In this document: in pieces, positions 206-27,944 of the stretch | Numbering within the stretch: position 1 is the first letter of the stretch | How the letters are laid out: each line of letters begins with the position of its first letter | Sequence record: SRR20825019_439 | Direction: 5' to 3' (one strand) | Length of the DNA: 34,682 nt | The notes under the pieces: model-generated | What the model was told of the DNA's origin: nothing | Databases searched by the model: none | What the model saw: the letters and a program-made list of their open reading frames with translations, nothing else | Made by a program: the position numbers and the translations under genes

Positions 206-1462
206 ATGAATCCTGCCGAACTGCTTTCCCAGCCTCTAGCCCTGAAAAACGGGGCGGTGATACCCAATCGATTTGCCAAATCGGCCATGAGCGAAACTCT
301 TGGAACCATGGATAACCGTGTGACGCGGGATCTGCCACGGCTTTATGGCACTTGGGCGGATGGCGGGATCGGGTTGTCGATCACCGGGAATGTGATGATT
401 GATCGGCGACATATTGGTGAACCAGGGAATGTGGTGCTGGAGGATGAGCGGGATCTGGACCTGTTGCGGGAATGGGCGAGGGCTGGTTCACGCAATGGGT
501 GCCAGCTGTGGATGCAGCTCAACCATCCCGGTAAGCAGAGCCCGAAAATGCTGAACAAGGCGCCGGTGTCGCCCAGTGCGGTTCCGTTCCGCAAGGAGTT
601 GCAGGCTATGTTTGCGACGCCCCGGGCGCTGGAAGTGTCGGAGATTGAAGACATTATCCAGCGGTTCGCCAGCAGTGCAGCGATTGCAGTGAAGGCGGGC
701 TTTTCCGGGGTGCAGATTCACGGCGCGCACGGCTATCTGGTGAGTCAGTTTTTGTCGCCCCACCATAACGTTCGGGAGGATGAGTGGGGTGGTAGTCCCG
801 AGAATCGGATGCGGTTTGTGGTGGAGGTGTACAAAGCCATCCGCGCGGCGACCGGCGAGCAGTTCAGTGTGGGCATCAAGCTGAATTCGGCGGATTTCCA
901 GCGGGGCGGTTTTACCGAGGAAGAGTCGTTAAAGGTTATCGAGACCCTGGCGGAGCTCGGCATTGATCTGGTGGAGATTTCCGGTGGCAATTACGAAAAC
1001 CCGGCGATGGCGAAAGGTGCCAAGGGTGTGAATGGCGCGAAGGCCAGCACCGTCGCCCGGGAGGCGTATTTCCTGGAATTTGCGGAGAAGGTGCGCAAGC
1101 GGGTGGACGTGCCGTTGATGGTAACCGGTGGTTTCCGCACCGAGTCAGGCATGGCGGAAGCTGTGGCATCGCGGGCTACGGATCTGGTGGGCCTGGCGCG
1201 GCCACTGGCGGTGGAGCCGGACTTCCCGCGACGCATTATGGCAGGGCAGGCATTTACCAGTTCCGTGAAGCCCATTCGCACCGGCATTCGCTTGATTGAT
1301 GAGATGGCGCTGATGGAAGTGAGCTGGTACACCCGGCAACTCGGGCGCATGGGTAAGGGTAAGGCACCAAAGAAGCACGACCGGGGTGTGCTGTCTTTGA
1401 TGGAGGTGCTGGCGGTGATGACGTCGCGGGGCGTGCGTACCCGGCTACGGGCCGGCGAGTGA
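206..1462 (+). CDS. NADH:flavin oxidoreductase / old yellow enzyme family protein
   Basis: 418 aa with PNRFAKSAMSE, QLNHPG, GFSGVQIHGAHGYLVSQFLSP, DEWGGSPENRMRF and GLARP motifs. RBS GGAG lies upstream of the ATG. Confidence 0.9.
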   Translation: MNPAELLSQPLALKNGAVIPNRFAKSAMSETLGTMDNRVTRDLPRLYGTWADGGIGLSITGNVMIDRRHIGEPGNVVLEDERDLDLLREWARAGSRNGCQLWMQLNHPGKQSPKMLNKAPVSPSAVPFRKELQAMFATPRALEVSEIEDIIQRFASSAAIAVKAGFSGVQIHGAHGYLVSQFLSPHHNVREDEWGGSPENRMRFVVEVYKAIRAATGEQFSVGIKLNSADFQRGGFTEEESLKVIETLAELGIDLVEISGGNYENPAMAKGAKGVNGAKASTVAREAYFLEFAEKVRKRVDVPLMVTGGFRTESGMAEAVASRATDLVGLARPLAVEPDFPRRIMAGQAFTSSVKPIRTGIRLIDEMALMEVSWYTRQLGRMGKGKAPKKHDRGVLSLMEVLAVMTSRGVRTRLRAGE

Positions 1463-2389
1463 TGGTTTGAAGGTTTCCAGCTTGTGGTTGAAAATCGCGC
1501 GTTGGGCTTCGGCCTCTGCGACGTCCGCAAGGTAAAAACGGATTCGTGTCCCGGGCCCACGTTGCGCCAGTCGGCCAGCATCCAGGGCGCTCAGGCAGCC
1601 TATTTTTGGGTAGCCACCGATCGTTTGCCGGTCTTTCATCAGGACGATCGGCTGGCCGTCACTGGGCACCTGAATGGCACCATAGGCGATGCCTTCGGAG
1701 ATGATGCCGTCCAGCTCAGAGTGTATAGGGTCGCCGGTTAACCGATAGCCCATGCGATCGATTCGCTGGCTGACCTCGTAACAGCCCGTGAAAAATTTCA
1801 TACGCTCACCAGCAGAAAAGTGCGCGTATTGGTAGCTGGGTATCACACCGATGTGGAGGTCCTGGTTATAGTCCGGAATTTCCCCGGCTGGCAGGCTTGC
1901 CATGGTCTTTGGATGGCTGCGGTCAAACCCGATGCAGTCGCCTTTGGCCAGCTTTTGCCCGCGTCCATCCAGTCCTCCAAGGCCTTCGCGCACGACGGTG
2001 GCGCAGCTACCCAGTTTCACGGTGGGCTTCAGTCCCCCGGCGACGGCAAGGTAGGCCCTTAGTCCGGCCACCGGCATGCCGAATTCGATACGGTCTCCCC
2101 GGTGGATTTGATAGGTATGCCAGGGTGCTGCCGCCTCTCCATTGATCTGCGCTCCGAGGTCCGCACCCGTGAGCGCGATGCAGGTATCCTCATGGGCCAG
2201 CAGGCTCAGTTTTCCAATATTGATCTCGATCTGCGCTGCCTCCGGTGGATTGGCGAGCAGGCGATTGGCCCAGCGAAAGGCATGCTCGTCCATGGGGCCG
2301 CCGGTGGTCACGCCAATGTGCTGATAGCCGTACCGGCCTTGGTCCTGCAGCAAGGCCAGCATACCGCCATCCAGAACTTCAAAACTCAT
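1445..2389 (-). CDS. pxpC: 5-oxoprolinase subunit C (KipA/AHS2 family)
   Basis: LQDQGRYG, GGPMD, GLRAYLAVAGG, DRMGYRL and GAIQVP..GQPIVLMKDRQTIGGYPKI motifs. Start reset to the ATG at 2389 (MSFEV), which overlaps the end of pxpB. Confidence 0.9.
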   Translation of the reverse strand: MSFEVLDGGMLALLQDQGRYGYQHIGVTTGGPMDEHAFRWANRLLANPPEAAQIEINIGKLSLLAHEDTCIALTGADLGAQINGEAAAPWHTYQIHRGDRIEFGMPVAGLRAYLAVAGGLKPTVKLGSCATVVREGLGGLDGRGQKLAKGDCIGFDRSHPKTMASLPAGEIPDYNQDLHIGVIPSYQYAHFSAGERMKFFTGCYEVSQRIDRMGYRLTGDPIHSELDGIISEGIAYGAIQVPSDGQPIVLMKDRQTIGGYPKIGCLSALDAGRLAQRGPGTRIRFYLADVAEAEAQRAIFNHKLETFKPSLAGP

Positions 2390-3071
2390 CGAGGTTGCCT
2401 CCGAGGTCCAGATACTCCTGGCGGTCAATCGATCGGAACCGCACCCTATCCCCTACTGATACCAGTGCCAGGGAATCGCTGTCCCAATCGATCATTCTTT
2501 GAGGTGTGCGACCGACTATCTGCCACCCGCCCGGCGTGGCGCTGGGATAGATGGCGGTCTGCGAGCCGGCAATGCCAACGCTCCCGGTGGGTATTTTCTG
2601 TCGGGGCGTGGCTTTGCGGGGCAGGGCAATTCGTTGGTCGGTAATGCCAAGGTAAGCGAACCCCGGGCTGAATCCGATGGCGTAAACGCGGTAGGTCTGC
2701 TCACTGTGGATGCGCACCACTTCGTCCCGGCTCAGGCCTGAATAGTCACACACCTCGTCCAGGTCCAGGCCTACTTCGTCGCCGTAGTAGACCGGCAACT
2801 CAATGGTGCTGGAAGCGCTTTCATCCGGCGCCTCCTGTTCTTCCTCGCTCAATGCCTTGCGCAGCCGGGACGCGATGCCGAAGCGGTCGGTCCTGTCGGC
2901 GTCATAGCAAACCAGCACGGAGGTATATGAAGGCACCAGGTCAATCACCAGATCCGACAGGTTCTGGCGAATGGCCTCAGTGGCCCACTTGACCTGGCCG
3001 GCGATGTCATCGCTGATACGGTCACCAAAATAGACGATGCACGTACTTTCGTTGACGGCTTCAATGATCAT
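2379..3071 (-). CDS. pxpB: 5-oxoprolinase subunit B (KipI/AHS1 family)
   Basis: LVPSYTS, ELPVYYG, IGFSPGFAYLG and GSVGIAG.QTAIYP..TPGGWQIVGRT motifs. 4-bp overlap with the pxpA stop. Confidence 0.92.
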   Translation of the reverse strand: MIIEAVNESTCIVYFGDRISDDIAGQVKWATEAIRQNLSDLVIDLVPSYTSVLVCYDADRTDRFGIASRLRKALSEEEQEAPDESASSTIELPVYYGDEVGLDLDEVCDYSGLSRDEVVRIHSEQTYRVYAIGFSPGFAYLGITDQRIALPRKATPRQKIPTGSVGIAGSQTAIYPSATPGGWQIVGRTPQRMIDWDSDSLALVSVGDRVRFRSIDRQEYLDLGGNLDEF

Positions 3072-3802
3072 AGTGACTCGACGACCTGCCGCATGTGCCT
3101 GGCCGCCTCTACAGCATGCTGGCTGTCGCCATGAATGCAGAGGGTGTCGGCCTTTATCGGGATACGTTTGCCGGAAATCGACGTGACGCTGCCTTCGGTG
3201 ATGATCTGTGTTACCTGCCTTTCTATGGCTTCTGGCGTGTCATGAACCGCGTTCTTCACCGAGCGTTTAACCAGAAGGCCTTCGTCGCTGTAGGCACGGT
3301 CGGAAAACGCCTCGAACCACACGTTGATGCCAGCGTCGGCGGCCAGCGCCAGAACTTCGTCGGCATCAGGTGTTGCCATGACCACCAGGGGGCAGTGGGC
3401 TGCATAGTTGCGTACCGCAGCCATCACCGCTGCCAGGGTTGTGCGGTCTACTGCCATTTTGTTGTAGAGCGCGCCGTGGGGCTTAATGTATTCGATGGCT
3501 GTGCCGTGGGTGCGGCAGATGCCGTCCAGCGCAGCGATCTGATACACCAGCAGGGCCTGGAGTTCCTCGGGCGCAAACTCCATGTCACGCCGGCCGAAAC
3601 CCAGCAGGTCCGGATAGCCGGGGTGCGCGCCGATGGTGACCTTCTCGGCAATCGCGGTTCTAACGGTGCGGTCCATGGTCAGCGGGTCTGAGGCATGGAA
3701 GCCGCAGGCTATATTGGCCATATCAATGTAGGGCATGACCTCGGCATCCATGCCTTTGGTCCAGCTACCGAAGCTCTCGCCCATATCGCAGTTGAGTTTC
3801 AT
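3068..3802 (-). CDS. pxpA: 5-oxoprolinase subunit A (LamB/YcsF family)
   Basis: LNCDMGESFG, ANIACGFHA, IGAHPGYPD, YIKPHGALYN and TLCIHGD motifs. Confidence 0.95.
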   Translation of the reverse strand: MKLNCDMGESFGSWTKGMDAEVMPYIDMANIACGFHASDPLTMDRTVRTAIAEKVTIGAHPGYPDLLGFGRRDMEFAPEELQALLVYQIAALDGICRTHGTAIEYIKPHGALYNKMAVDRTTLAAVMAAVRNYAAHCPLVVMATPDADEVLALAADAGINVWFEAFSDRAYSDEGLLVKRSVKNAVHDTPEAIERQVTQIITEGSVTSISGKRIPIKADTLCIHGDSQHAVEAARHMRQVVESL

Positions 3803-3832
3803 TGGTTGTCTCCAGAAACAAGTGAATGTGCG

Positions 3833-5140
3833 CTAGCCTCGGCTCATGGTCTGAGGGAGGTAGGTGACAATTTCCGGGAACCAGCCGATCAGAAACAGTG
3901 CTGCCATGATCAGCAGGAAAAAGGGTAGCGCGGCCCGGGCAACGTAGAGAATGTCTTTCCCGGTCAATGCCTGGATCACGAACAGGTTGAAGCCCACCGG
4001 TGGTGTAATTTGCGCCATCTCAACAACCAGAACGATAAAAATGCCAAACCAGAGCATGTCGATGCCGGCCTGCTGGACCATGGGCATGACCACAGCGACG
4101 GTAAGAACCACCACGGAAATGCCATCCAGGAAACAGCCCAGTAGAACGAAGAGGGCAGTCAGGCAGACAAGCAGTTCGAAAGAAGAGAGCGACATGCTGC
4201 CAATCCATTCCGCCAACTCTCTTGGAATGCCGAGAAAGCCCATGGACAAGGTGAGAAAATGCGCGCCCACCAGAATCAGGCCAATCATGCAGGAGCTCTT
4301 GACCGCGCCCAGCAGGCTTGCCTTGAAACTGTCGGCGTTCAGGGATCCGGTGACAGCCGCCAGCAACAGGGCGCCAAAAACGCCGAGTGCGGCAGCCTCG
4401 GTGGGTGTGGTAAAGCCGGCATAAATCGAACCAAGCACAAATACAATCAGGCCCACAATCGGCAGCAGCATTCGCAGCGCCTTGATCTTGGCTGAGAACG
4501 AGATGTGCTCTTTCTTATGCTTGGGCATCTCATCCTTGTTCAATGCCGCCCACACCATGGTGTAACCCATGAACATGGCCACCAGCATGAGGCCGGGCAG
4601 GGCGCCGGCGATAAACAGTCGGCCGATGGACACTTCAGCCGCCACGCCGTAAACAATCAGAATGATGGACGGCGGTATCAGCAGCCCAAGGGTGCCGGAA
4701 CCGGCAAGGGTGCCGACAGCCATGCGGTCGCTGTAACCCTGAGCCTTGAGCTCGGGCAGAGTCATGCGGCCAATGGTGGCCGCCGTGGCGGCCGACGAAC
4801 CAGACACCGCCGCGAATATACCGCAGCTGAGAATGTTTACGTGCAGCAGTTTGCCCGGTAAACCACCCATCCAGGGTGACAGTCCCTTAAACAGGTCCTC
4901 GGACAAGCGAGTACGGAACAGAACCTCGCCCATCCAGATGAACATAGGCAGTGCGGTCAGAGACCAGCCGGTGCTTGCGCCCCAGCTGGAGGTTGCGAAC
5001 AGAAGGCCGATCTGGTCGTTGCCGGACAACAGTAGCCCGAGGACGCCAATGCCAACCAAGGTCAGTGATACCCAAACGCCAAGCGCGAGCATCAATACCA
5101 TGGAGGCAGCGAGGGCGATGGAAAGCAGCGTGGTATCCAT
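3833..5140 (-). CDS. dctM: TRAP transporter large permease (DctM)
   Basis: 435 aa, hydrophobic, with FAAVSGSSAATAA, GTLGLLIPPSI, TPTEAA and ITPPVGFNLFV motifs. Confidence 0.93.
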   Translation of the reverse strand: MDTTLLSIALAASMVLMLALGVWVSLTLVGIGVLGLLLSGNDQIGLLFATSSWGASTGWSLTALPMFIWMGEVLFRTRLSEDLFKGLSPWMGGLPGKLLHVNILSCGIFAAVSGSSAATAATIGRMTLPELKAQGYSDRMAVGTLAGSGTLGLLIPPSIILIVYGVAAEVSIGRLFIAGALPGLMLVAMFMGYTMVWAALNKDEMPKHKKEHISFSAKIKALRMLLPIVGLIVFVLGSIYAGFTTPTEAAALGVFGALLLAAVTGSLNADSFKASLLGAVKSSCMIGLILVGAHFLTLSMGFLGIPRELAEWIGSMSLSSFELLVCLTALFVLLGCFLDGISVVVLTVAVVMPMVQQAGIDMLWFGIFIVLVVEMAQITPPVGFNLFVIQALTGKDILYVARAALPFFLLIMAALFLIGWFPEIVTYLPQTMSRG

Positions 5141-5658
5141 CAGATTTCCTCCAGATTGACGTCACTTTCGTGTTGTTGGTAAGAAGGCTCACGTTTCCGC
5201 AGCACCGCGATCAGGTCGTCCAGGATCGCGATAGTAAGCGCTAACGTGCCCAGCCCAACCGGGATCTGAGGGATCCAGATCGGAATGGGGATGTAGCCGT
5301 GTGAGACCTCCTCAAAAACGTAGGATTCCCACACCATGTGCCAGCAGTAGAAGGTCATGAAGCACGCAAGGCCGAGGCCAAGGATGAGTACCGCCAGTTC
5401 CTGAACGAACCGCGCCCGGGCCGGCCACTTCTGGATAACCAGGGTCACCCTGATGTGGCCACCTTCGTGAAAGGTGTAGGCAAGCCCGAAAAACGTGGAG
5501 GCGGCGAGAGCATACCCGGACACGTTTTCAGCAGAAGGGATGATAAAGCCGAACAGCCGGCCGACAATCTGCACCAGAATCACGACCATGATCAACGCAA
5601 TGCAGAACCCCGCTGCGTAACCAGACGCCAGGTAAAACTTGTCTCGAAGGGTACTCAT
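5140..5658 (-). CDS. dctQ: TRAP transporter small permease (DctQ)
   Basis: 172 aa, four predicted TM segments, GGHIRVT motif. Stop overlaps the dctM start by 1 bp. Confidence 0.9.
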   Translation of the reverse strand: MSTLRDKFYLASGYAAGFCIALIMVVILVQIVGRLFGFIIPSAENVSGYALAASTFFGLAYTFHEGGHIRVTLVIQKWPARARFVQELAVLILGLGLACFMTFYCWHMVWESYVFEEVSHGYIPIPIWIPQIPVGLGTLALTIAILDDLIAVLRKREPSYQQHESDVNLEEI

Positions 5659-5678
5659 GGAAGATGCCTCCCAAGCCG

Positions 5679-5707
5679 GCTTTCCCGCTGGAATGCCAGG
5701 GGAAAGC
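5679..5707 (-). other. Intergenic stem-loop directly after dctP, without a U-tract
   Basis: GCTTTCCC-G-CTGG AATG CCAG-GGGAAAGC inverted repeat. Confidence 0.6.
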
Positions 5708-5724
5708 GTCTTGTGAATGGACCG

Positions 5725-6690
5725 TTAACGGTAGTTTTGCAGAATAGTGCCGACTTCCTTCGGAGCTTCTTCTTCCCATTCCTGGATCATGATGTCGCCG
5801 ATCTTCTGAAATTCCTGCATCAACTGCTCTGACGGCTCAGACACTGTGATGCCATTCTCGGCCAGCGTTGCGGTGTCTTCGGCAGCGGTTACACGAACGC
5901 CCTCCCAGCCCTTCATTTCGGCTGCCGCGGCGGCGTCGAGAATGACCTGCTGTTGTTCTTCGCTCAGGCGGCGAAAGGCGCGCTTGTTGACGACGACAAC
6001 GTTCTTGGGAATCCAGGCTTTGATGTCAGTGTAGTGAGAGAGGTAATCCCAGGCCTGGCCGTTGGCGCCGGTGGATGGCGAGGTAATCATCGCGTCAATG
6101 ATGCCGGTACTGAATGCCTGGGGGATCTCAGGTACCTGAACGGTGGTCGGGGTGGTGTTCATGAGATCAGCCAGCCGTGAAGTGGACGGGCTGTAAGCGC
6201 GCATCTTCAGACCTTCCAGGTCGCTCATGGTGTTGACCGGAGCCTTTGTATACAGGCTCTGGGCGGGCCATGGCACCGTGTAAAGCAGCTTCATGCCCTC
6301 TTTATCGAGTTGTTTTTCCACCTCGGGTTTTGCGGCTTCCCAGAGCCGTTTTGCATCCTCAAAGCTAGTTGCCAGAAACGGAATGTTGTCGTGTTTGAAC
6401 ACCGGATGGGTGTTGCCCATGATGCCGATGAAGATCTCCCCCAGCTGAACCTGTCCTGTGCGGACGGCCCTCGGGATTTCCGGATGTTTAACCAGTGAGG
6501 CGCCGGAGTGGACGGTGATGGCTATGTCGCCGTCGGTGCCTGCCTTGATGTCTTCAGCAAACTCATAGGCGATTTTGGTTGGCAGGTTCGCATCGCCGTA
6601 GGGCGTTGGCATGTGCCATTGGGCAGCGTTGACTGCGGTGGTGAAGAAAACCCCTGCCATCAGGGTGGCTGTCGCAAGTTGTTTGAACAT
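5725..6690 (-). CDS. dctP: TRAP solute-binding protein (DctP), likely pyroglutamate/glutamate-type
   Basis: Sec signal peptide (..TAVNA), GLKMRAY with the carboxylate-binding Arg, and AFSTGIIDA. Substrate inferred from the pxpABC context. Confidence 0.88.
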   Translation of the reverse strand: MFKQLATATLMAGVFFTTAVNAAQWHMPTPYGDANLPTKIAYEFAEDIKAGTDGDIAITVHSGASLVKHPEIPRAVRTGQVQLGEIFIGIMGNTHPVFKHDNIPFLATSFEDAKRLWEAAKPEVEKQLDKEGMKLLYTVPWPAQSLYTKAPVNTMSDLEGLKMRAYSPSTSRLADLMNTTPTTVQVPEIPQAFSTGIIDAMITSPSTGANGQAWDYLSHYTDIKAWIPKNVVVVNKRAFRRLSEEQQQVILDAAAAAEMKGWEGVRVTAAEDTATLAENGITVSEPSEQLMQEFQKIGDIMIQEWEEEAPKEVGTILQNYR

Positions 6691-6743
6691 ATCGATTCTC
6701 CCGTTCTTTTGTTGTTGTTGCTTTGGTCATCAATTGGCAGTTG

Positions 6744-7559
6744 CTACAGCACCGCCAGTTCTTCGTTAAGCCGCTCGGTGAGCAGCATTTTTCCCGGTAC
6801 GTGAGTGATCGCGATCGGGGGGCGTGCGTTCTCCAGGGCAACCTGCGGCGTCACGCCACAGGCCCAGAAGACGGGTATCTCGTCACGGCGGATGGTGACG
6901 GCGTCGCCAAAATCCGGAGCGTGGATATCGTTGATTCCGATCAGGGCCGGATCCCCGATGTGCACCGGCGCCCCGTGCGCTTTGGGTAGCCGGGTGGTGA
7001 TCTGAATCGCCCGGATAGCATCGGCAGCTTTGAACGGCCTCATGGAGACCACCATGTCGCCGTGGAACCGGCCGGCCGATTGGGTGGCAATGTTCGAGCG
7101 ATACATGGATACGTTCTGCCCCTGCTCGACGTTCCTGATGGACAGGCCGGCACGGACCAGCGCATCTTCGAACGAGAAGGAGCAGCCGAGTACAAACGTC
7201 ACAAAATCGTTGCGCCACACATCGCGAATGTCAGTGGCAGTCTCAGCCCGTTCACCATTGCGGAAGATCTGGTACTCGGGGATGTCGGTTCGGATGTCCA
7301 GATCACGCCCAAGGCCCGGCAGCATGGGGTCACCGGTCTGGGAGACGCCAATCAGGGGGCAGGCGACAGGATTGTTCTGGCAAAACAGAAGAAAATCGTT
7401 CGCCCAGTCGGCCGGCAGGATGACGACATTGCCCTGAACCAGGCTCTGTGCCTTGCCGCTGGTGGTTCCGGTATGGGTACCGGAACGTATGTGTGCGCGT
7501 AGTTCAGATACCTGGTCAAGCAGGCCTGTTTTGAAGTCTGAATAATCGCCGGTCTGCAT
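6744..7559 (-). CDS. DUF1445 putative hydro-lyase / D-glutamate cyclase-like protein (YcsI family)
   Basis: [66 protein letters not shown] and ITHVPGKM motifs. Confidence 0.88.
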
Positions 7560-7600
7560 CTCGGCTACCCCTGATTGAATTTGTTATGTGGTTATGGATC

Positions 7601-7666
7601 AGGTTATTCCTATTGGCGAAAAAGTCTAATTATGGTTTTTTACGTTTGGTGATAAGTTTCGGTGAT
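7601..7666 (-). promoter_or_regulatory. Candidate sigma70 promoter with a LysR recognition box for the DUF1445-TRAP-pxp operon
   Basis: Minus strand TTAGAC-17bp-TAACCT (7601-7629). ATAA-N7-TGAT (T-N11-A) at 7652-7666 is centred about 65 bp upstream of the implied TSS. Confidence 0.45.
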
Positions 7667-8557
7667 GTCAGGTTCCACGTACTGTTTCGAAACGTTGACC
7701 GCCAGGTTGGCGGCCAGTTCGGCTATCGGGTTAAACGGCACGCTGGGGTACGAGGCTGTGAATGCCAGTTGTGATGGTGTCCAGGCGGCATCCAGAGTGA
7801 TCAGGCGCCCGCTTTTCAGGCCGTCAGATATCACGCTCATCGGTAGTGCCGACACACCAATGCCATCCAGCGTCAGCCGGCGACATGCTGCCAGTGAACT
7901 GGATGAATAGAAGCGTGCGGGCAGTTCGTCCAGTTCGCTGAATTTCTGGCTGATTTCGGCAAACGGCTTGGTGTTTCTGGCGTAGGTAATGATGGGCCAC
8001 TGGGCCAGTTCCTCGAGCTCCAGTTTTCGGTCTGGCAGTTTCAGCGCGGGACTTGCGACCCAGATCAGGGGGAAGCTGCACAGGTCCAGGTTTTCAATTT
8101 TGGGTTCGGAAACCGGACCCATCAGGAAAGCGAGATCGAAGGTGCGGTCCATCAGGCCGGTGCGGAGGTTCCCGGTGACGTCGACCGTGATCTCCACGTC
8201 CAGGTTTGGCGTGTTTTCGTTCAGCTTGCGGAAAAAGTATGGCAGCCAGGAGTGAACGATGGTCTCGGAAACGCCAAGCCTCAAGATGCCGGACAGCAAC
8301 GCGACCCTGTCGGCTCGTTTGCGCAGCTGCTGCGACATGGAGACGATTTTTTCGGCGTAGGGCAACAGCTCCTGCCCCCTGGTCGTCAACATGGTGCGGC
8401 CGGAATCCCGCTCAAAGAGCTGAACGCCCAGTTCTTCTTCAAGCGCTGCTATTCGATTGGATATCGCGGGTTGCGTGGTGTTTTGCCGCTCTGCCGCCTT
8501 GCGAAAACTTCCGAGGGTGGCTACCCAGATAAAAGTTTCCAGACGTTTAAAGTTCAT
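7640..8557 (-). CDS. LysR-family transcriptional regulator
   Basis: N-terminal HTH (GSFRKAAERQNTTQPAISNRIAALEEELGVQLFER) and LRLGVSETIVHSWLP. 305 aa. Confidence 0.95.
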   Translation of the reverse strand: MNFKRLETFIWVATLGSFRKAAERQNTTQPAISNRIAALEEELGVQLFERDSGRTMLTTRGQELLPYAEKIVSMSQQLRKRADRVALLSGILRLGVSETIVHSWLPYFFRKLNENTPNLDVEITVDVTGNLRTGLMDRTFDLAFLMGPVSEPKIENLDLCSFPLIWVASPALKLPDRKLELEELAQWPIITYARNTKPFAEISQKFSELDELPARFYSSSSLAACRRLTLDGIGVSALPMSVISDGLKSGRLITLDAAWTPSQLAFTASYPSVPFNPIAELAANLAVNVSKQYVEPDITETYHQT

Positions 8558-8643
8558 GGGCGCCCTTTGTGTTGGATAGCGGAATACCTTTCGACGTTGA
8601 GTGGGGCTGCTAGCTGAAGTTTAGTTCAGGATACGAAAGGCAT

Positions 8644-8674
8644 AAAAAAAACCCCGGCACGTGGCCGGGGTTTT
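8644..8674 (-). terminator. Rho-independent terminator of the porin gene
   Basis: AAAAAAAACCCCGGC-ACGTG-GCCGGGGTTTT: a GC stem followed by U8 on the minus strand, 23 bp after the porin stop. Confidence 0.9.
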
Positions 8675-8697
8675 CGTGTTGCTGACTTCTAATTCGA

Positions 8698-9840
8698 TTA
8701 GAAGTTGTACTGTGCTGCGAACAGGATGCGGCTTGCGTCGCCGTCGTCGCCGCTAACGTTTTCACGCTTCAGGAACGCGTATTCAACGCCCATCATCACG
8801 TTATTGACCGGAGTCCACTGGTAGTTAGCCATTACAGCTGAGTTGGATTCGCTCTGGCCCGCAACGGCAACGCCATCATCTTCGGCATCGTCCCAATCTA
8901 CTTCGACAATACCATAGCCAACGTTGATGCTACGTCCGCCGCCCAGATTGAAGCCTGCGCCAACAGTTCCACCGTAACCAGAAATGGTTTCTACGTCACC
9001 AGACGCGGGATCAACGTAGGCGCTTGCGGCACCGAAGTTTTCGCCGGAACGATAGAGGTAGCTGTTAGCACCGTTCGTGTAGCTCAGGGAGCCCTGAACA
9101 GTGATCATGTCACTGAGTGCCATCTTGGCAGCGACAAAGGTAGCAAAGCCCATTGCGCTTTCGTCTTCAGTTCCGGTGTCATAGCCAACTTGGTGAGCCA
9201 GAACAGCGGCTGAGTATGACAGGCCGCCAGCAGAGTCTTGCAGGCGAGCTGTGAGTGCTGGCAACGAATCTTTCTGCGCAGCATTAGCTGGCGCTGTTAC
9301 GAAAGAGCTCTGTGGATCTTCCAGAGAGAGGGAGAGAGGGCCCGTAGTGTAACGCGCTTGTGTAGTACGTGACTGATAGCCTGCAACGCCCGGGAGAGAG
9401 TCGAAGTCCAGAGTTGAGGTGTTGCCGACAAAACTGGTGAAGTTCGACCAGGTTTGTCCCATCAGTACGCCATTGTATTCACCATAGGCATGGCGCAGGC
9501 GCAGTGAACCGCCGCCGCTGCCGCGGAAGTCGCCTTCAACGTTAATTTTGACGCCCTCGGGTGATACGGTTTTCACGCCGATCCGGCTCTGAAAAGCGTC
9601 AGCGCCGAAGTGGCCATCTGGCGCGTCGTCATTGTTGACAAGCCCGCTGTAGGAGCCTGACCGCGTGCTCAGAGCCTGGTTGCTGTCAATGTCGTAGGAA
9701 GCGTTTAAGCGAGCATAGCCATAGATATCGGTCTGGTAACCACCTGTTTCAAAGCTGACCGCTTGTGCCTGCGCAGCTACCCCCAAAATTGCTACCGCAG
9801 CCGTTGAACGAATTGCCATTCTTAATTTGTTGCTTTGCAT
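8698..9840 (-). CDS. DcaP-family trimeric outer-membrane porin
   Basis: Signal peptide (AQAQA), IYGYARLNASYD, QSRIG, LRLRHAYGEY, GQTWSNF and C-terminal QYNF. Start reset to MQSNK (ATG 9840, GGAG 9 nt upstream). Confidence 0.85.
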   Translation of the reverse strand: MQSNKLRMAIRSTAAVAILGVAAQAQAVSFETGGYQTDIYGYARLNASYDIDSNQALSTRSGSYSGLVNNDDAPDGHFGADAFQSRIGVKTVSPEGVKINVEGDFRGSGGGSLRLRHAYGEYNGVLMGQTWSNFTSFVGNTSTLDFDSLPGVAGYQSRTTQARYTTGPLSLSLEDPQSSFVTAPANAAQKDSLPALTARLQDSAGGLSYSAAVLAHQVGYDTGTEDESAMGFATFVAAKMALSDMITVQGSLSYTNGANSYLYRSGENFGAASAYVDPASGDVETISGYGGTVGAGFNLGGGRSINVGYGIVEVDWDDAEDDGVAVAGQSESNSAVMANYQWTPVNNVMMGVEYAFLKRENVSGDDGDASRILFAAQYNF

Positions 9841-9880
9841 CTTTGTTGTCTCCACACATTATTTTTGTTGGACCCACTTC

Positions 9881-9941
9881 AAAGTAGTTACGAATTCATG
9901 ACATTTCAAATAAATTCTTGCATTAATTAGACGAATGTCTA
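9881..9941 (-). promoter_or_regulatory. Porin sigma70 promoter with an upstream palindromic activator site
   Basis: TTGAAA (9904-9909)-17bp-TACTTT (9881-9886) on the minus strand. TAGAC-GAAT-GTCTA palindrome at 9928-9941. Confidence 0.6.
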
Positions 9942-10046
9942 TGCAACGAAATCGCCGGTTTAGGGGAACTTTTTGAGGGTTGTGTTTATTTCCTTCTTCC
10001 AGTAAAGCGGAACATCGGTTATTTCCAGCGGTGCGTACCTGGTGCT

Positions 10047-11498
10047 ATGACGAAAAATACTCAGATTCTCGGCTCGGCCACGTTTGCCTTTCTCGATATT
10101 GAAACCACGGGCGGCAACTCCTCCCACGATCGAATCACGGAAATTGGTATCCGTTTCTGGCGAGCGGGGGAGGTGGTTGGCGAGTGGCAAACCCTGATCA
10201 ATCCGGAAACCCGGATTTCACCCTTCATAGAGAGCCTGACCGGTATTTCCGACGCCATGGTGGCGGATGCGCCAGTGTTTGAAGACATTGCCGGGGTGTT
10301 AGAAGAGCAGCTGAAAGACACCATTTTCGTGGCCCATAATGCGCGGTTTGATTACGGATTTATCAAGGCCGAGTTCCGGCGGCTGGGCTTGCTGTTCTCA
10401 GCGAAAGTGCTCTGTACCGTTAAATTGTCCCGCACGCTGTACCCTGGTTTTCGACGCCACAATATGGATGCATTGATTGAGCGTCATCATCTGGAACAGG
10501 TGCAGCGACATCGCGCGCTGGGGGATGTCTCCGCGATGATGGCGTTTTTCGAGCATGCCTTGGCTGAGAAAGGAAACGATGCCATGGAAGCGGCCATCCG
10601 CAATTTACTCCAGAGGCCCAGCATTCCGTCCAACCTGCCCACCGATGTGCTTCAGGATCTTCCGCGTGGGCCGGGAGTGTATCGATTCTACGGTGAAAAC
10701 GACGCTCTTCTGTACGTAGGTAAAAGTACTAACATTGCCCAGCGTGTGGCCTCTCACTTCTCTGGTGACCACAATTCCAGCCGCGGCATCCGCATGTCTG
10801 AGAGTCTGCGACGGGTGGACTGGACCGAAACCGCTGGCGAGCTGGGCGCGTTACTGCTTGAATTGAAGCAAATAAAGCAGTTGAAGCCACTGTTTAACCG
10901 GCGTTCCCGGGCAGCGAAGAATCTGGTGAGCATTGAGCTGGCGGAGAATTCGTCGGGGTATCTGCAGGCGCGCCTGGTGTGGGAGATTGAACCGCACCGG
11001 CTGGGTGACTATTTTGGTTTGTTTCGCAGCAAGAAAGACGCCGAAAAGGCACTCAGTGGCATCGCCGCGAAGAACGATCTTTGCAACAAGTTACTGGGGC
11101 TGGAACCCGACGGTGATGGCCCTTGTTTTCAGCGTAGCCTGGGTCGCTGTAGAGGCGCCTGTGACGGCGGTGAGGATGTTGTCCGCTACAATTTGAGAAC
11201 CCAGATTGCCTTCCACGGACTACGGCTGAAAACCTGGCCCTGGAAAGGGCCGGTCGGAGTTGTGGAGCACAATGTCAGAACCGGCAGGACCGATATCCTG
11301 GTGGTTTACAACTGGATGCACGTGGCCACGCTGCGGGGGATGGACGAGATTGACGGACTTTCTTTGCGCGACCAGGCCGTCAATTTCGACCTGGATTCCT
11401 ACAAGCTGGTGGTCAAAGCCCTGATGGGGCAGGATGGGCGCTCGCTGAAAGTGATAGAGCTGGATGCGGTGGGCGCGCCGGATGTGCTCATGCCCTGA
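10047..11498 (+). CDS. DEDDh 3'-5' exonuclease (DnaQ/epsilon-like) fused to a GIY-YIG (Cho/UvrC-like) endonuclease
   Basis: FLDIETTG, VAHNARFD, LCT and HRALGD, then PGVYRFYG..LLYVGKS..QRVASHF, and a Cys cluster (LCN...PCFQRSLGRCRGAC). Confidence 0.88.
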   Translation: MTKNTQILGSATFAFLDIETTGGNSSHDRITEIGIRFWRAGEVVGEWQTLINPETRISPFIESLTGISDAMVADAPVFEDIAGVLEEQLKDTIFVAHNARFDYGFIKAEFRRLGLLFSAKVLCTVKLSRTLYPGFRRHNMDALIERHHLEQVQRHRALGDVSAMMAFFEHALAEKGNDAMEAAIRNLLQRPSIPSNLPTDVLQDLPRGPGVYRFYGENDALLYVGKSTNIAQRVASHFSGDHNSSRGIRMSESLRRVDWTETAGELGALLLELKQIKQLKPLFNRRSRAAKNLVSIELAENSSGYLQARLVWEIEPHRLGDYFGLFRSKKDAEKALSGIAAKNDLCNKLLGLEPDGDGPCFQRSLGRCRGACDGGEDVVRYNLRTQIAFHGLRLKTWPWKGPVGVVEHNVRTGRTDILVVYNWMHVATLRGMDEIDGLSLRDQAVNFDLDSYKLVVKALMGQDGRSLKVIELDAVGAPDVLMP

Positions 11499-11538
11499 GT
11501 GGCGTATGATTAACTGTATCTTTTCACGTTTTGTTTGA

Positions 11539-12765
<1,227 letters not shown>

Positions 12766-12815
12766 CAGACGTTAATCCGCGACAGTAACCACAAGCATGA
12801 TGACAGGAGCCGCCT

Positions 12816-13832
12816 ATGTGGCTGGTACGTCCGGCTCAGCCGGGTGACCTGAACGACATACTCGACATCGCCGGGGGCCAGGGCCCCCGGATGTCATCCA
12901 CCCTGCCCAAAAAAGAGGACGCACTGTCCACCAAGATTGATCAATCCACCCGCTCCTTTGCCGGCACAAACAAACCCGACGAACCCAAGCGGTTCCTGTT
13001 CGTACTGGAAGACACCCGTACAGGTAAGGTGCAGGGCGTATCGGGTATCGATGCCCGGGCGGGTAATGGGCAGCCGTTCTACAATTACCGTCAGGACGCA
13101 CTTATCCATGCCTCCCATGAGCTGGGCGTTTCGCGCCGGGTGGAGGTTCTGTACCCATCCCATGCGCTGACCGACCACACGCTGTTGTGCTCTTTCGCCA
13201 TCAGGCCGGAGCTGCGTGGTACTGACGCCTTCGAGCTGCTGTCCCGTGCCAGGATGCTGTTTATCGCCAGCCATCGCTCGCTGTTCACGGATAAGGTGGT
13301 TGTGGAGATACAGGGTGTGCAGACGGAAGACGGCGAGGTGCCGTTCTGGGACAGTCTGGGGCGGCATTTCTTTAATATGGATTTTGAAACCGCAGACCAA
13401 TATTCCGGGTTGTTGAGCAAAACCTTTATTGCAGAACTGATGCCGCCCAACCCGATCTACGTCACGCTGCTCAGCCAAGCCGCTCAGGATGCGCTAGGGC
13501 AGCCTCACTCTCAAACCCAGGCGACGTACGAGTTACTTCAGCGCGAAGGGTTCCGGGCGGGATGCTATCTCGATATCTTCGATGCCGGGCCGGTACTGGA
13601 AGCTCGCACCGATGCGCTCAGGTCTGTTGTGACCAGTCATCCGAAAACCCTGCATGCCGCCCATACTGACGATGGCGAAACCTGCCTGATTTGTGGTGGT
13701 GAGGGCGGGGATTTTCGTAGCACACTGACCCCGCTCGCGGAGAGCCTGCAGGACCAAGTGAAAGTGTCGCCGAAAACCTGGGAATACCTGGGCCTGAGCT
13801 CCGGTAACACGGTACGGGTGACACCATTATGA
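12816..13832 (+). CDS. aruF: Arginine N-succinyltransferase alpha subunit
   Basis: AstA-family motifs (FLFVLED, PFYNYR, LLSRARMLFIA, PFWDSLGRHFF, FIAELMP, DIFDAGP). Precedes the second paralog. Confidence 0.85.
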   Translation: MWLVRPAQPGDLNDILDIAGGQGPRMSSTLPKKEDALSTKIDQSTRSFAGTNKPDEPKRFLFVLEDTRTGKVQGVSGIDARAGNGQPFYNYRQDALIHASHELGVSRRVEVLYPSHALTDHTLLCSFAIRPELRGTDAFELLSRARMLFIASHRSLFTDKVVVEIQGVQTEDGEVPFWDSLGRHFFNMDFETADQYSGLLSKTFIAELMPPNPIYVTLLSQAAQDALGQPHSQTQATYELLQREGFRAGCYLDIFDAGPVLEARTDALRSVVTSHPKTLHAAHTDDGETCLICGGEGGDFRSTLTPLAESLQDQVKVSPKTWEYLGLSSGNTVRVTPL

Positions 13833-13869
13833 ACAGGGCAAGCACAGCAAGCACAGACAGGAGGCCGGA

Positions 13870-16397
<2,528 letters not shown>

Positions 16398-16410
16398 CGG
16401 AAGACGAGTC

Positions 16411-17751
16411 ATGGCCAAGCACGCAGTAGAAGCCAATTTTGATGGCCTGGTAGGGCCTACCCATAACTACGCCGGGCTTTCGTGGGGCAATGTGGCGTCC
16501 AAGTCCAACGTTCGCTCGGTGTCCAATCCGAAGGAAGCCGCCCTGCAGGGACTGGCGAAAATGAAGCGTCTGGCGGATCGCGGTTTTGTCCAGGGTGTTC
16601 TGCCGCCCCATGAACGCCCGCATATTCCGACCTTGCGGGCATTGGGGTTTACCGGTTCGGACCGCGACGTTCTCAGCGCGGCCGCCAAACAGAGCCCGTC
16701 TATCCTGGCTGCTGCCTCGTCGGCGTCTACCATGTGGACGGCCAATGCCGCTACGGTTTCGCCGAGTGCGGATACCTCCGATCACCGCGTACATTTTACG
16801 CCGGCGAACCTAAGCGCCAAGTTCCATCGCTCTATTGAGCATGTGGTCACCGGCCGGGCACTGAAATCCATCTTCGCGGACGACGCCTGGTTTGCACACC
16901 ATCCGGCGCTGCCGTCGGTCAGCCAGTTTGGTGACGAAGGCGCCGCCAACCACACCCGTCTGTGCGGCGGGTATGGTGAGCCGGGCGTTGAACTGTTCGT
17001 TTACGGCCAGATCGCCTTCAACGAACAGGCCCCGGCCCCGAAGCTGTATCCTGCACGCCAGACACTGGAGGCCTCCCAGGCCATCGCCCGCCTGCATGGC
17101 CTGAAAGACAGCCATGTGGTGTTCGCCCAGCAAAACCCGGCCGCGATTGATGCCGGGGTGTTCCACAACGACGTTATCGCCGTCGGTAATGGCAACGCCC
17201 TGTTCTACCACGAGCTGGCGTTTCTGGATGAAGAAACCGTGTTGGCTGATATCCGCTCGCGCCTGACAGGTGCAGAACTGGAAGCCGTGCGTGTCACCAG
17301 TGAGCAGGTGCCGCTGGAGGACGCTGTGGCCTCCTACCTGTTCAACAGTCAGTTGCTGAATACGCCCGATGGCATGATGCTGGCGGTGCCGGGTGAATGC
17401 CGTGAAATTGCGTCGGTCAGCCGCTATCTGGACGAGTTGGTGAACGACTCGGGGCCGATTACGTCGGTGGAGGTTTTCGACGTCAAACAGTCCATGCGCA
17501 ACGGTGGCGGTCCGGCATGTTTGCGTTTGCGGGTGGTACTGAACGACGACGAACTCAAGGCCATGCACCACGGCGTATTGCTAACCGACTCCCTGTATGA
17601 ACGCCTGACTACCTGGGTCGAGGCGCATTACCGGGAGGAGTTGTCGCAGGAGGATCTGGGCGACCCGATGCTGCTTGACGAAGTCCGTAAGGCTCTGGAT
17701 GAGCTGACCGGGATTCTTGGGCTTGGGTCTATCTACGATTTTCAGCTCTGA
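16411..17751 (+). CDS. astB: N-succinylarginine dihydrolase
   Basis: [38 protein letters not shown] and [15 protein letters not shown] motifs. Confidence 0.97.
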
Positions 17752-17772: not shown

Positions 17773-18414
17773 TCAGGACGAGATAGAGGACGTCAGCATC
17801 TCCATAGTATGACGGATCAGTGATTCCTCAGAAAAGTTGTCCTCCAGGTCGCTCTCAGTTATTTCGCTCTGGCATAGCATGATGACGCCATGGAGGGCGC
17901 CACGGAGGTAGAGCGCGGTTTCAACCGGATTGTGGATACGCTCGCGGTTCATGGTGCCGTCTTCCAGCCCCAGGTGTATCGCACCGACCATCAGTTCCAT
18001 GGTTTCTGCCTTGCAGCCAAACATCTCGCCTGCCAGTTCATCATCTGCGTCTGCCATCGTCGTGGAGGCTGTTGTCAGTGCGGAGAAGTAATCCGGCTGC
18101 TCGCGGTAGAAGTTGTAATAGGCCACTCCCATGGCGGATATCTGAGCCAGCCCGGTATCCGCCGTCTGGCGAGCCTCCTCAAAGCGGCGGCACAGGCTGT
18201 GGCCGGCACGAAGCACGATGCCGCGCTGGATCGCCGCCTTGTCCTTGAAGTACACGTACAGCAATGCACGGCTGAGCGCGGCCGTGCGGGCGATGTCGTC
18301 CATGGATGTGCGCTCGTAGCCCTTCTCCGAAAACACCAGTTCCGCAGCATCCAGAATGCTTTCGTACCTGGCCTGCTTCTCTTTCTCTCTACGGGTTTTT
18401 AACGGCTCACTCAT
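17773..18414 (-). CDS. TetR/AcrR-family transcriptional regulator
   Basis: ILDAAELVFSEKGYERTSMDDIA..ALSRALLYVYFKDK HTH. Divergent from the RND operon. Confidence 0.93.
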   Translation of the reverse strand: MSEPLKTRREKEKQARYESILDAAELVFSEKGYERTSMDDIARTAALSRALLYVYFKDKAAIQRGIVLRAGHSLCRRFEEARQTADTGLAQISAMGVAYYNFYREQPDYFSALTTASTTMADADDELAGEMFGCKAETMELMVGAIHLGLEDGTMNRERIHNPVETALYLRGALHGVIMLCQSEITESDLEDNFSEESLIRHTMEMLTSSISS

Positions 18415-18477
18415 AGGGGGTTCCGGGTAATGGAGACTGCCATCTCATGATACATGGTTAGGGATGAAATCCGATTA

Positions 18478-18526
18478 TTGACAAATTGTCAAAGAATGAC
18501 ATTATGTCTGATAATGAACTTTTGTC
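18478..18526. promoter_or_regulatory. Three tandem GACA-N3-TGTC operators, candidate TetR sites overlapping the promoter
   Basis: TTGACAAATTGTCAA (18478-18492), GACATTATGTC (18498-18508) and GAACTTTTGTC (18516-18526) at an exact 18-bp period. A perfect -35 TTGACA lies in the first site. Confidence 0.7.
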
Positions 18527-18579
18527 CACCGGATGGATGATCAAAAACACCGTGACCATGGAAGAGAGAGGACTTCTCA

Positions 18580-19659
18580 ATGAACATCGCCCGGCGCTCC
18601 GCCATCGTTTCCCTCCTGGCCGCTGCAAGCCTCCTTGTCAGCGCCTGTAAATCCAGTGAACCGGCGCCTGAACAGGGTGCTGCCCCGGTAACAGTGCGTG
18701 CTGCCGAGGTGACGGGCGGCCAGACGGAGGGCGTTTCGCTGCGCTTTTCCGGTATCGTCCGGGCGGCCCAGCGGGCAACGCTGACGTTCCAGGTGAGTGG
18801 CACCCTTCGAGAACGCGCGGTTGAACTGGGGCAGACCGTCAAGACCGGTGACCTTCTGGCGCGGGTATATAACCCTGCACTGGAACCGGCGCGGGATTCC
18901 GCAGCCGCCCGGCTGGACGAACTGAGAACCCAATATGATCAGGCCAAACGGGAGTGGGAACGCTCCCGCCAACTGCACGAACGCGGGGTCGTTTCGGAGC
19001 AGGGGCTTGAACAACTGGCTTCCCGGCGGGACAGCCTGAAAGCCAGTATGGCAACGGCCGAAGCATCTCTTGCCGAGGCCACACGCTTACTGCGAGAGAG
19101 TGAACTGAGGGCGCCGTTCGACGGCCGGGTTGAAGCCTTGCTGGTGGAACGGGATGAGTTTGTGGCCTCCGGCCAGCCGGTGATGCGCCTGTCGTCCCCA
19201 GAGGGGCGCGAAGTGGAAGTGCGGGTACCGGCGTACATGCTCAACCATGTGTCGCTGTCGCAACTGCTGCCGGTCTGGTCGGTGCAGGATCGTAACCGTG
19301 CGCCAGTCACCGGCTCCATTGTGGAAATTGCCCAGCCCGGAGGTGTTCGCGGCGAGCTCCATCCGGTATTGGTCAGCCTGCCGGCAGATACCCTCGAACC
19401 CGGGGAGCCGGTGGAAGTGGGTATTACACCCCGTGAAACCGTGGCCACGACGGTGCCGTTGTTGTCAGTGATGAAATCCAACGGAGGCGCCAGCGTGTTC
19501 CGCATTTCCGATGGCGTTGCCCGCCGTGTGCCGGTGACGGTGCAGCGGATCATCGGTGAGCGTGTGGTGGTGGATGCCACCAATCTTAGTGCTGGTGATC
19601 AGGTGGTCTTTGCCGGCATGACCCGTATTTCCGACGGTGATGCCGTGGAGGTGCGCTGA
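18580..19659 (+). CDS. RND efflux periplasmic adaptor (MFP), lipoprotein
   Basis: Lipobox LVSAC, FQVSG..VELGQTVKTGDLLA lipoyl half, coiled hairpin and LRAPFDGRV. Confidence 0.9.
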   Translation: MNIARRSAIVSLLAAASLLVSACKSSEPAPEQGAAPVTVRAAEVTGGQTEGVSLRFSGIVRAAQRATLTFQVSGTLRERAVELGQTVKTGDLLARVYNPALEPARDSAAARLDELRTQYDQAKREWERSRQLHERGVVSEQGLEQLASRRDSLKASMATAEASLAEATRLLRESELRAPFDGRVEALLVERDEFVASGQPVMRLSSPEGREVEVRVPAYMLNHVSLSQLLPVWSVQDRNRAPVTGSIVEIAQPGGVRGELHPVLVSLPADTLEPGEPVEVGITPRETVATTVPLLSVMKSNGGASVFRISDGVARRVPVTVQRIIGERVVVDATNLSAGDQVVFAGMTRISDGDAVEVR

Positions 19660-23710: not shown

Positions 23711-23748
23711 TTCAGCTGCGCTCCGGACTTCCCTGCACTGTGGATTTG

Positions 23749-24471: not shown

Positions 24472-24474
24472 GGT

Positions 24475-25179: not shown

Positions 25180-25196
25180 GGGTACATCCGGTAAGC

Positions 25197-25221
25197 GGGG
25201 GCAGCAACAAACGCTGCCCCC
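25197..25221 (-). other. GC-rich stem-loop directly after the binding-protein gene
   Basis: GGGGGCAGC-AACAAAC-GCTGCCCCC, a 9-bp stem with no U-tract. Confidence 0.6.
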
Positions 25222-25230
25222 CGGCCATTT

Positions 25231-25983: not shown

Positions 25984-26120
25984 GAGTCACTTCTCCAGTA
26001 GTCAGCCTTGTGGGCATTATTATCGGCAATGATTTGCCTTATTTTGCTGGTTTTGGCGTTTTCTTCCGGGGCGGATATATGCCCCGATAAGGAAACATGG
26101 TTTCAAGATAGCACTGCACG

Positions 26121-27803: not shown

Positions 27804-27823
27804 GATGTTTCCTGCCAGGAGCC

Positions 27824-27838
27824 ACTGGTCGGACCAGT
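27824..27838. promoter_or_regulatory. FadR-subfamily operator 1
   Basis: ACTGGTC-G-GACCAGT palindrome 20 bp upstream of the glcC start. Confidence 0.8.
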
Positions 27839-27927
27839 TGTTTTTATCGTGCCTTGAATTAAAGAAACCCTTTCGGGACCAGTAAATATGGCTCATTACA
27901 GCGTTTTCGTCTATCTGGCATTTACAA

Positions 27928-27944
27928 AACTGGTCTGACCAGTT
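27928..27944. promoter_or_regulatory. FadR-subfamily operator 2
   Basis: AACTGGTC-T-GACCAGTT perfect palindrome matching the TGGT-N3-ACCA consensus of PdhR/LldR-type regulators. Confidence 0.85.

Follow-up and report, generated by a model that had tools for sequence, protein, structure and literature searches.

A cluster of eight genes in the window, a term used here for the whole stretch of 34,682 nucleotides from sequence record SRR20825019_439, is probably a LysR-controlled operon in which a DctP7-type TRAP (tripartite ATP-independent periplasmic) system would import pyroglutamate (5-oxoproline) and the 5-oxoprolinase PxpABC would open it to L-glutamate. The eight open reading frames (ORFs) all lie on the minus strand and span positions 1445-8557. 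A sequence-only reading of the same DNA had described them as co-oriented, tightly packed genes for a LysR regulator, a DUF1445 protein, a TRAP system and PxpABC, and these names are borne out by the ORF list, Pfam and NCBIfam. From the gene content, the homologies, the conserved synteny and the fusions described below, we infer a ligand, a direction of flux, a mode of regulation and a set of enzymatic activities that would act together as follows. DctP would capture 5-oxo-L-proline in the periplasm and DctQM would carry it across the inner membrane, presumably driven by an ion gradient as in known TRAP transporters. PxpABC would then hydrolyse the lactam to L-glutamate at the expense of ATP, and L-glutamate would enter carbon and nitrogen metabolism. 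Transcription is probably activated by the LysR protein from a promoter in a conserved spacer right after the lysR stop codon, with either the substrate or a product as the signal. PxpABC, the sole complete set in the nearest genomes, would also repair 5-oxoproline that forms spontaneously, while DUF1445, encoded by the first structural gene, may act as an optional fourth enzyme.

The ring-opening enzyme is encoded by three adjacent genes with LamB/YcsF, CT_C_D (KipI) and CT_A_B (KipA) domains, respectively, in Pfam. In particular, PxpA (3068..3802, 244 amino acids) matches PF03746 at 4.6e-95 and NF003816 at 351 bits (cut-off 213), and PxpB (2379..3071, 230 amino acids) matches PF02682 at 2.2e-69 and TIGR00370 at 177 bits (cut-off 145.6). 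PxpC (1445..2389, 314 amino acids) matches PF02626 at 3.8e-85 and TIGR00724 at 253.6 bits (cut-off 230.2). The start of pxpC is most likely the ATG at 2389, which has GGAGG in front of it and gives an overlap of 11 nucleotides with pxpB, while the TTG at 2428 used in the ORF list (1445-2428) is disfavoured. The transporter consists of the periplasmic binding protein DctP (5725..6690, 321 amino acids, PF03480, with a signal peptide ending in VNA-AQ), the small membrane subunit DctQ (5140..5658, 172 amino acids, PF04290 at 9.5e-23) and the large membrane subunit DctM (3833..5140, 435 amino acids, PF06808 at 3.5e-84, TIGR00786 above its cut-off at 365.7 bits). The gene in front of them (6744..7559, 271 amino acids) encodes a "putative hydro-lyase" of the DUF1445/UPF0317/YcsI family, with matches to PF07286 (D-Glu_cyclase) at 2.4e-65 and to NF003969 at 405 bits (cut-off 324). 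Directly upstream of these structural genes and on the same strand is the LysR-type transcriptional regulator (7640..8557, 305 amino acids), composed of an N-terminal HTH_1 domain (PF00126, 4.9e-21) and a LysR substrate-binding domain (PF03466, 6.7e-34); the NCBIfam equivalogs for this protein all scored below cut-off. From lysR to pxpB, the genes are separated by 80, 53 and 66 nucleotides, a 1-nucleotide overlap, 30 nucleotides and a 4-nucleotide overlap.

The putative ligand is indicated by DctP. A search of solved chains returned 2pfy at 1.1e-94 (320 bits), 2pfz at 2.2e-70 and 6wgm at 8.2e-60, with the next-best chain at 4.9e-21; the distance to other TRAP binding proteins is far greater than that to DctP6 and DctP7, and the genes for DctQ and DctM adjoin that for DctP. 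DctP is 40% identical to a Bordetella-type DctP6, and the alignment reveals an R-A-Y-S stretch that it shares with 2pfy and 2pfz and that may hold the conserved TRAP arginine. DctP7 (2PFY, BP1891) and DctP6 (2PFZ, BP1887) of Bordetella pertussis are on record as structures solved with pyroglutamate bound. For DctP7, a dissociation constant of 0.3 uM for 5-oxoproline is quoted (PMC13274462) and the ligand is given as L-pyroglutamate in a supplement table (PMC11485210). To see what accompanies such transporters, 400 scored gammaproteobacterial genomes, drawn evenly, were searched with a match threshold of E <= 1e-60, and up to 20 kb was fetched per locus. A DctP match was present in 16 of the 400. 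Once G001, the nearest genome compared (its DctP is 93% identical to that of the window), is left out, nine of the 15 DctP7-like TRAP loci adjoin a 5-oxoprolinase, which is PxpABC in four and the OplAH type in five. The transporter is thus repeatedly paired with ring-opening enzymes of two origins, the pattern expected of a pyroglutamate importer. Together with a DctP7-type DctP, PxpABC and a dedicated LysR in one cluster, this pairing gives good support to the earlier proposal of a scavenging unit.

The conservation of the cluster was evaluated in a survey of DUF1445 loci, in which a 44-member family alignment was run against species genomes and the best 80 of at least 598 confirmed loci were searched with the window proteins and two partner domains, counting what lies within 9 kb of DUF1445. 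These loci include several architectures and are drawn from a few other phyla besides the Gamma-, Beta- and Alphaproteobacteria; since they are mutually related and best-scoring, the counts are not independent. Five of the 80 (L001, L002, L004, L005 and L009, from Marinobacter, Enterovibrio and Marinomonas) show the eight-gene order again, which exceeds what chance would give. OYE and DcaP, the flanking genes of the cluster in the window and taken as a negative control, recur in none of the 80. Of the relatives of the DUF1445 protein that carry a name, the best belong to Marinobacter and are about 80-83% identical to it. Among genomes of the same genus, the cluster is nearly unchanged in G001 and G006 (L089, L090), where PxpB is single-copy and located in the cluster, so that PxpABC there must also take care of any housekeeping repair. 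PxpA is present in 24 of 25 same-genus genomes and DUF1445 in 19, and five genomes devoid of DUF1445 (L081-L085) carry plain pxpABC with no TRAP genes, which indicates that the importer, the regulator and DUF1445 are additions to a basic ring-opening set. DUF1445 and PxpA share a contig in 15 of the 19 genomes, at a distance of about 3-4 kb in five (the window type) and of 5.6-7.2 kb in ten. An example of the longer type is L088 (G003, 7584-14293), with LysR, DUF1445, a different TRAP, DUF2848, an amidase-signature enzyme, a gene of unknown type and pxpABC. In G007, a DctP7-like TRAP adjoins an intact pxpABC with no DUF1445 (L094). The same genome also contains what appears to be a decayed window-type cluster (L095, 7385-11165), with LysR present, DUF1445 truncated and only fragments left of DctM, PxpB and PxpC.

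The regulation proposed for the operon finds a likely anchor in the spacer behind lysR. The sequence AAAAAACCATAATTAGAC (7624..7641, minus strand) overlaps the lysR stop codon and includes a -10-like CATAAT at 7629-7634. It is near-identical in the window and in L001, L002, L004 and L005, thus across Marinobacter, Enterovibrio and Marinomonas, while the remaining spacer diverges, and it is a candidate promoter or operator for the seven structural genes. RNA libraries of three studies yield contigs over most of the cluster, among them one that runs over 5328-8571, from dctQ to lysR. Such contigs neither rank expression nor prove transcription or a single transcript, and parts left uncovered in X14, X15 and X18 do not amount to silence.

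Several observations weigh against the proposed operon for pyroglutamate import and opening. The PxpC equivalog NF045499 of NCBIfam scores 218 against a cut-off of 500. The choice of pyroglutamate as the presumed ligand of DctP comes from homology, and six of the 15 DctP7-like loci have no 5-oxoprolinase in the fetched stretch, several of the contigs being short. Between lysR and DUF1445, a scan for consensus promoters made no call, and it gave two promoter-like sites in 10.2 kb versus 4.0 +/- 1.9 expected. DNA carry-over is also possible, since one RNA contig extends across OYE and pxpC, two convergent genes. Finally, the core model leaves the role of DUF1445 unexplained.

Comparison with known systems indicates which parts of the cluster have precedents. 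The B. pertussis proteins DctP6 and DctP7 (BP1887/BP1891) belong to the same DctP subfamily as that of the window, and their TRAP locus is described with a nearby eukaryote-type 5-oxoprolinase (PMC13274462), whereas the window has PxpABC and not OplAH. The genes for the membrane components are intact in the window, while those of B. pertussis are reported as seemingly non-functional (PMC5812351). In L014, a contig labelled as Bordetella, DUF1445 lies 1.9 kb from an ORF with 470 bits to 2pfz and OplAH is on the opposite side, an arrangement indicating that the classical DctP6 locus also contains DUF1445. Another precedent is the ycsF-ycsG-ycsI-kipI-kipA-kipR operon of Bacillus subtilis (pxpA-mntG-pxpI-pxpB-pxpC), where DUF1445 resides within a pxpABC operon as in the window (PMC10448178); the B. 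subtilis control genome indeed matches PF07286. The "different transporter class" mentioned by the sequence-only reading is YcsG, an Nramp protein that has been demonstrated to import Mn2+ and whose part in the uptake of 5-oxoproline is in doubt (PMC10448178), whereas the window has a binding-protein-dependent TRAP; the regulators differ as well, being KipR and global regulators in B. subtilis and LysR in the window. Corynebacterium glutamicum combines a transporter with PxpABC in pxpTABC/PxpR, for which growth on 5-oxoproline is established (PMC13274462), and SAR11 has a pyroglutamate ABC importer, SAR11_0655, beside pxpABC (PMC11485210); both sets serve to consume L-pyroglutamate from outside, but in both the transporter family differs from that of the window. 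DUF1445 is mentioned neither in the available text of the former source (PMC13274462) nor in the SAR11 supplements examined (PMC11485210). In Acinetobacter baumannii, A1S_1266-1270 (Nramp, LamB/YcsF, DUF1445, allophanate-hydrolase-like, carboxylase) link DUF1445 by co-regulation to LamB/YcsF and KipI/KipA-like genes (PMC2848557); unlike the window, this operon has no TRAP, and it includes Nramp and a gene of the biotin-carboxylase type. In vertebrates, the mitochondrial D-glutamate cyclase (DGLUCY, 9030617O03Rik, EC 4.2.1.48) shares the DUF1445 domain and conserved residues with the window protein, while it also carries a DUF4392 domain that the window cluster lacks. Importers of the TRAP or ABC class next to a 5-oxoprolinase, as well as DUF1445 inside pxp operons, are therefore already in print.

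One point that does not support the sequence-only reading as it stood is that DUF1445 is dispensable for the combination of TRAP and 5-oxoprolinase in most genomes. The gene occurs in just one of the 15 DctP7-like TRAP loci sampled, which makes it an optional extra in the module for uptake and ring opening and not a required part. Its link to 5-oxoproline metabolism is nevertheless real, judging from neighbourhoods and fusions, and extends to the non-homologous OplAH-type enzyme. In the survey of 80 loci, a 5-oxoprolinase of either kind was found within 9 kb of DUF1445 in 43. PxpABC (at least two subunits) is present in 28 loci, OplAH in 16, any TRAP system in 30, a DctP7-like TRAP in 19, DUF4392 in 17 and a LysR gene at most 400 bp from DUF1445 in 27, while 24 have none of PxpABC, OplAH, TRAP and DUF4392. 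For the 50 loci with at least 6 kb on both sides, the numbers are 31 for either 5-oxoprolinase, 22 for PxpABC, 10 for OplAH, 19 for any TRAP, 10 for the DctP7-like TRAP, 12 for DUF4392, 20 for LysR and 12 for none of the four.

Two further arrangements stand out in these loci. The order DUF1445-PxpA-PxpB-PxpC-DUF4392 is found in 15 of the 17 DUF4392 loci (L012, L015-L017, L028, L029, L032, L034, L038, L051, L053, L054, L056, L068 and L072) and again in L099 and L100; it occurs in many gammaproteobacteria, and in it the two domains of the animal cyclase appear as separate genes around pxpABC. TRAP is present in none of the DUF1445-PxpABC-DUF4392 loci, and DUF4392 in none of the TRAP-bearing pxp loci. 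A second recurrent DUF1445 operon type (L010, L041, L046, L050, L061, L067, L071, L073 and L088) has LysR and DUF1445 followed by another kind of TRAP binding protein with QM, DUF2848, in many cases an amidase-signature enzyme, and then PxpABC or OplAH. The binding proteins of this type score 33-85 bits with the window DctP; DUF2848 has a weak match to the solved chain 1nkq (E = 1), and no paper on it was found in the literature searched. Where loci are free of oxoprolinase, the neighbours of DUF1445 are often a LysR gene in divergent orientation and an ABC importer of the branched-chain type.

Fusions provide an independent view of the family. A search over 1.84 billion representatives gave 3423 DUF1445 clusters at E <= 1e-3, and all 35 proteins of at least 398 amino acids among the best 150 of these were scanned with Pfam. 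The partner is PF14336 (DUF4392), in either order, in 20 of the 35 and OplAH-type hydantoinase/oxoprolinase domains in five, two of which are full-length fusions of 1477 and 1480 amino acids. An Ogt DNA-binding domain is found in four, a pyridoxal phosphate (PLP) enzyme, a NUDIX domain and an FKBP domain in one each, and no partner domain in three. The Ogt-type partner (6-O-methylguanine methyltransferase) belongs to P0126, P0156, P0163 and P0193, and a serine/threonine-dehydratase-like PLP domain to P0136; all five are apparent fusions.

As for the protein itself, DUF1445 has two relatives of known structure, 2pif (5.5e-79) and 3db9 (4.2e-73), neither with an assigned function, and a profile search against PDB sequences returned these two only. 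The AlphaFold2 model is confident, with a predicted local distance difference test score (pLDDT) of 94.8. Outside the family, the NrpR-like domain 3nek is the only fold neighbour among the matches listed (Foldseek E 6.7e-07), and VIA-align places it at Z 9.9 over 166 residues with a root-mean-square deviation of 4.2, the other matches listed from 48,161 chains, 2pif and 3db9 apart, being below Z 5. A racemase-like fold of the cofactor-independent two-cysteine kind (Asp/Glu/hydantoin racemase type) was considered; no racemase is among the listed matches of Foldseek against the PDB and of VIA-align, which weighs weakly against it. The residues Q42, N63, D88, Y96, R174, H195, C234 and T237 are near-invariant in stand-alone DUF1445 and kept in 13 DUF4392-fused and five OplAH-fused representatives, so that the chemistry is probably shared. 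There are two conserved cysteines, C67 and C234; the former is Leu in three of the 13 DUF4392-fused representatives, which makes it unlikely that a strict two-cysteine mechanism is universal. When a complex of PxpA and DUF1445 was predicted, with controls not run, both scores were 0.00 (mark 0.32), which speaks neither for nor against binding. The literature searched contained no work on the function of a DUF1445 protein from bacteria. DUF1445 most likely acts as a hydro-lyase on a substrate of the glutamate or 5-oxoproline type.

Which reaction this would be can be weighed among different proposals. The sequence-only reading made the cluster a unit for both enantiomers. In it, 5-oxoproline or D-glutamate would enter through TRAP and the L-lactam would be opened by PxpABC, while DUF1445, as a D-glutamate cyclase of bacteria, would take care of the D-form, which could come from peptidoglycan. 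On this model, the link to L-glutamate would fall to an enzyme outside the cluster. As a whole the model appears somewhat unlikely, and D-glutamate cyclase taken by itself, although a tentative assignment, is the leading single hypothesis for DUF1445. The shared chemistry suggested by the residues retained in DUF4392- and OplAH-fused forms is in its favour, as are the ties of DUF1445 to both kinds of 5-oxoprolinase, the presence of both halves of the animal enzyme around pxpABC in 15 of the 80 loci, and the optional occurrence of DUF1445 beside TRAP and oxoprolinase, as expected of an added capability. In L060, a D-amino-acid-dehydrogenase-like gene with a score below the model cut-off is located beside DUF1445. 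The steps, however, would form no productive path: the equilibrium between glutamate and 5-oxoproline favours the lactam, so that a cyclase would make and not consume 5-oxo-D-proline, and ATP-dependent 5-oxoprolinases are described as enzymes of the L-form. The handling of the D-form is not supported as it was stated: a cyclase does not open the D-lactam, and nothing in the cluster joins the D-form to the L-route, the cluster having no racemase, as the earlier reading had itself observed.

The homology on which the assignment was built is confirmed, as PF07286 is the family of one domain of the mouse D-glutamate cyclase (PMC5339696), but the activity does not follow from it. Indeed, cyclase activity is on record for the whole two-domain mouse protein (DUF1445 plus DUF4392) only; the available text of that work (Ariyoshi 2017, PMC5339696) assigns the activity to no domain, thus not crediting DUF1445, and stresses the racemase likeness of the other one. 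DUF4392 is related to TON_0340-type proteins (1.2e-29), and PF14336 is neither among the eight cluster genes nor in any of the 25 same-genus genomes; two of 16 other genomes of the order have it, directly behind pxpABC and near DUF1445. The affinity of DctP7 is likewise recorded for L-pyroglutamate only in the source available (PMC11485210).

A broader version of the same idea is that DUF1445, be it a D-glutamate cyclase acting by itself or an epimerase of 5-oxoproline, opens the D-series to bacteria, and that its operons salvage peptidoglycan-derived D-glutamate or D-pyroglutamate to L-glutamate via the lactam at the cost of ATP, which we regard as doubtful. Such a salvage would differ from the glutamate racemase and N-acetylation routes.

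It is unlikely that DUF1445 is instead an auxiliary of ring opening, that is, an extra subunit, an enzyme for an intermediate or side product, or a 5-oxoproline epimerase feeding the L-specific enzyme. The fusion of DUF1445 to the C-terminus of OplAH-type enzymes in five of the 35 long representatives is suggestive of such a role, and so is its position immediately upstream of pxpA in DUF1445-PxpABC(-DUF4392) loci. In addition, the B. subtilis gene carries the name pxpI in a preprint (10.1101/2024.05.01.592088), and there is the pair of conserved cysteines C67 and C234, although the Leu at position 67 in some fused forms counts against this role, as does, weakly, the lack of a racemase among the listed fold matches. 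No fusion to a Pxp subunit occurs among the 35 long representatives. Moreover, the 14 DctP7-like TRAP loci and the five same-genus pxpABC genomes that have no DUF1445 imply that it is not required for the core reaction, and the 24 loci with DUF1445 and no oxoprolinase, TRAP or DUF4392 within 9 kb point in the same direction. It is very improbable that the system serves a different lactam or C5 compound (a substituted pyroglutamate, a 2-oxoglutaramate lactam) or glutamate, with pyroglutamate as a look-alike ligand: the second operon type, with its other TRAP, DUF2848 and amidase, does suggest that the family acts in pathways starting from something other than free pyroglutamate, and the sole non-family structural neighbour is an NrpR-like domain, but the window has a binding protein of the DctP7 type and not of the second type, and its cluster has neither DUF2848 nor an amidase.

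The proposed operon for pyroglutamate import and opening bears on a compound that forms spontaneously from glutamate and glutamine. A study of SAR11 transporters came to the conclusion that pyroglutamate has to be widely on offer in the ocean as a source of carbon or nitrogen (PMC11485210). The locus would add a TRAP-based, regulated form of its use in a marine, Marinobacter-like heterotroph. As regards DUF1445, a family with two solved structures, its ties to two unrelated ATP-dependent ring-opening enzymes, two TRAP types, DUF4392, DUF2848 and an amidase leave a short list of substrates, and they bear on how the two domains of the animal D-glutamate cyclase share the work.

On both sides, the cluster is flanked by genes that seem to be separate from it. 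Downstream is a convergent gene for an old yellow enzyme (OYE)-type flavin oxidoreductase (206-1462), which overlaps the end of pxpC. Upstream and co-oriented with the cluster is a DcaP-like porin gene (8698-9855, minus strand), behind which lies a hairpin with a U-run (8643..8675, minus strand) of -23.1 kcal/mol and z -4.17, with none of 200 shuffles as stable. The terminator-like hairpin at its end makes the porin gene a separate unit and marks the upstream boundary of the cluster, although the consensus promoter and terminator scan, which gave nothing above expectation, overlooked it. The porin was considered as part of the system and rejected, given the hairpin between porin and lysR, its distance of 4 kb in G001 and its absence from the other related loci. 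Three runs of RNA libraries, belonging to two studies, each have one contig that matches the extent of the porin gene nearly exactly and stops close to its ends (8732-9854/9855 in X14 and X15, 8677-9726 in X18), which is consistent with a separate porin transcript.

None of the other genes in the window is obviously tied to the pyroglutamate cluster. Positions 10047-11498 (plus strand) encode a 483-amino-acid protein with a DnaQ-type 3'-5' exonuclease and a GIY-YIG/Cho-like excinuclease part (PF00929, PF01541; NF007833 below cut-off at 207 bits). A complete arginine succinyltransferase pathway, which also yields glutamate, and an amino-acid ABC importer occupy 11548-17751 (plus strand) and 22691-26891 (minus strand), with astC/argD-like, two AstA-family, aldehyde dehydrogenase, AstB and AstE genes; this region is interrupted by a TetR gene and a resistance-nodulation-division (RND) efflux pair at 17773-22688. 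Finally, a second TRAP system is located at 27045-33497 beside GntR/FCD regulator and FAD-linked oxidase genes, with a DctP-family ORF at 27943-29193, DctQ at 29292-30005 and DctM at 30002-31540.

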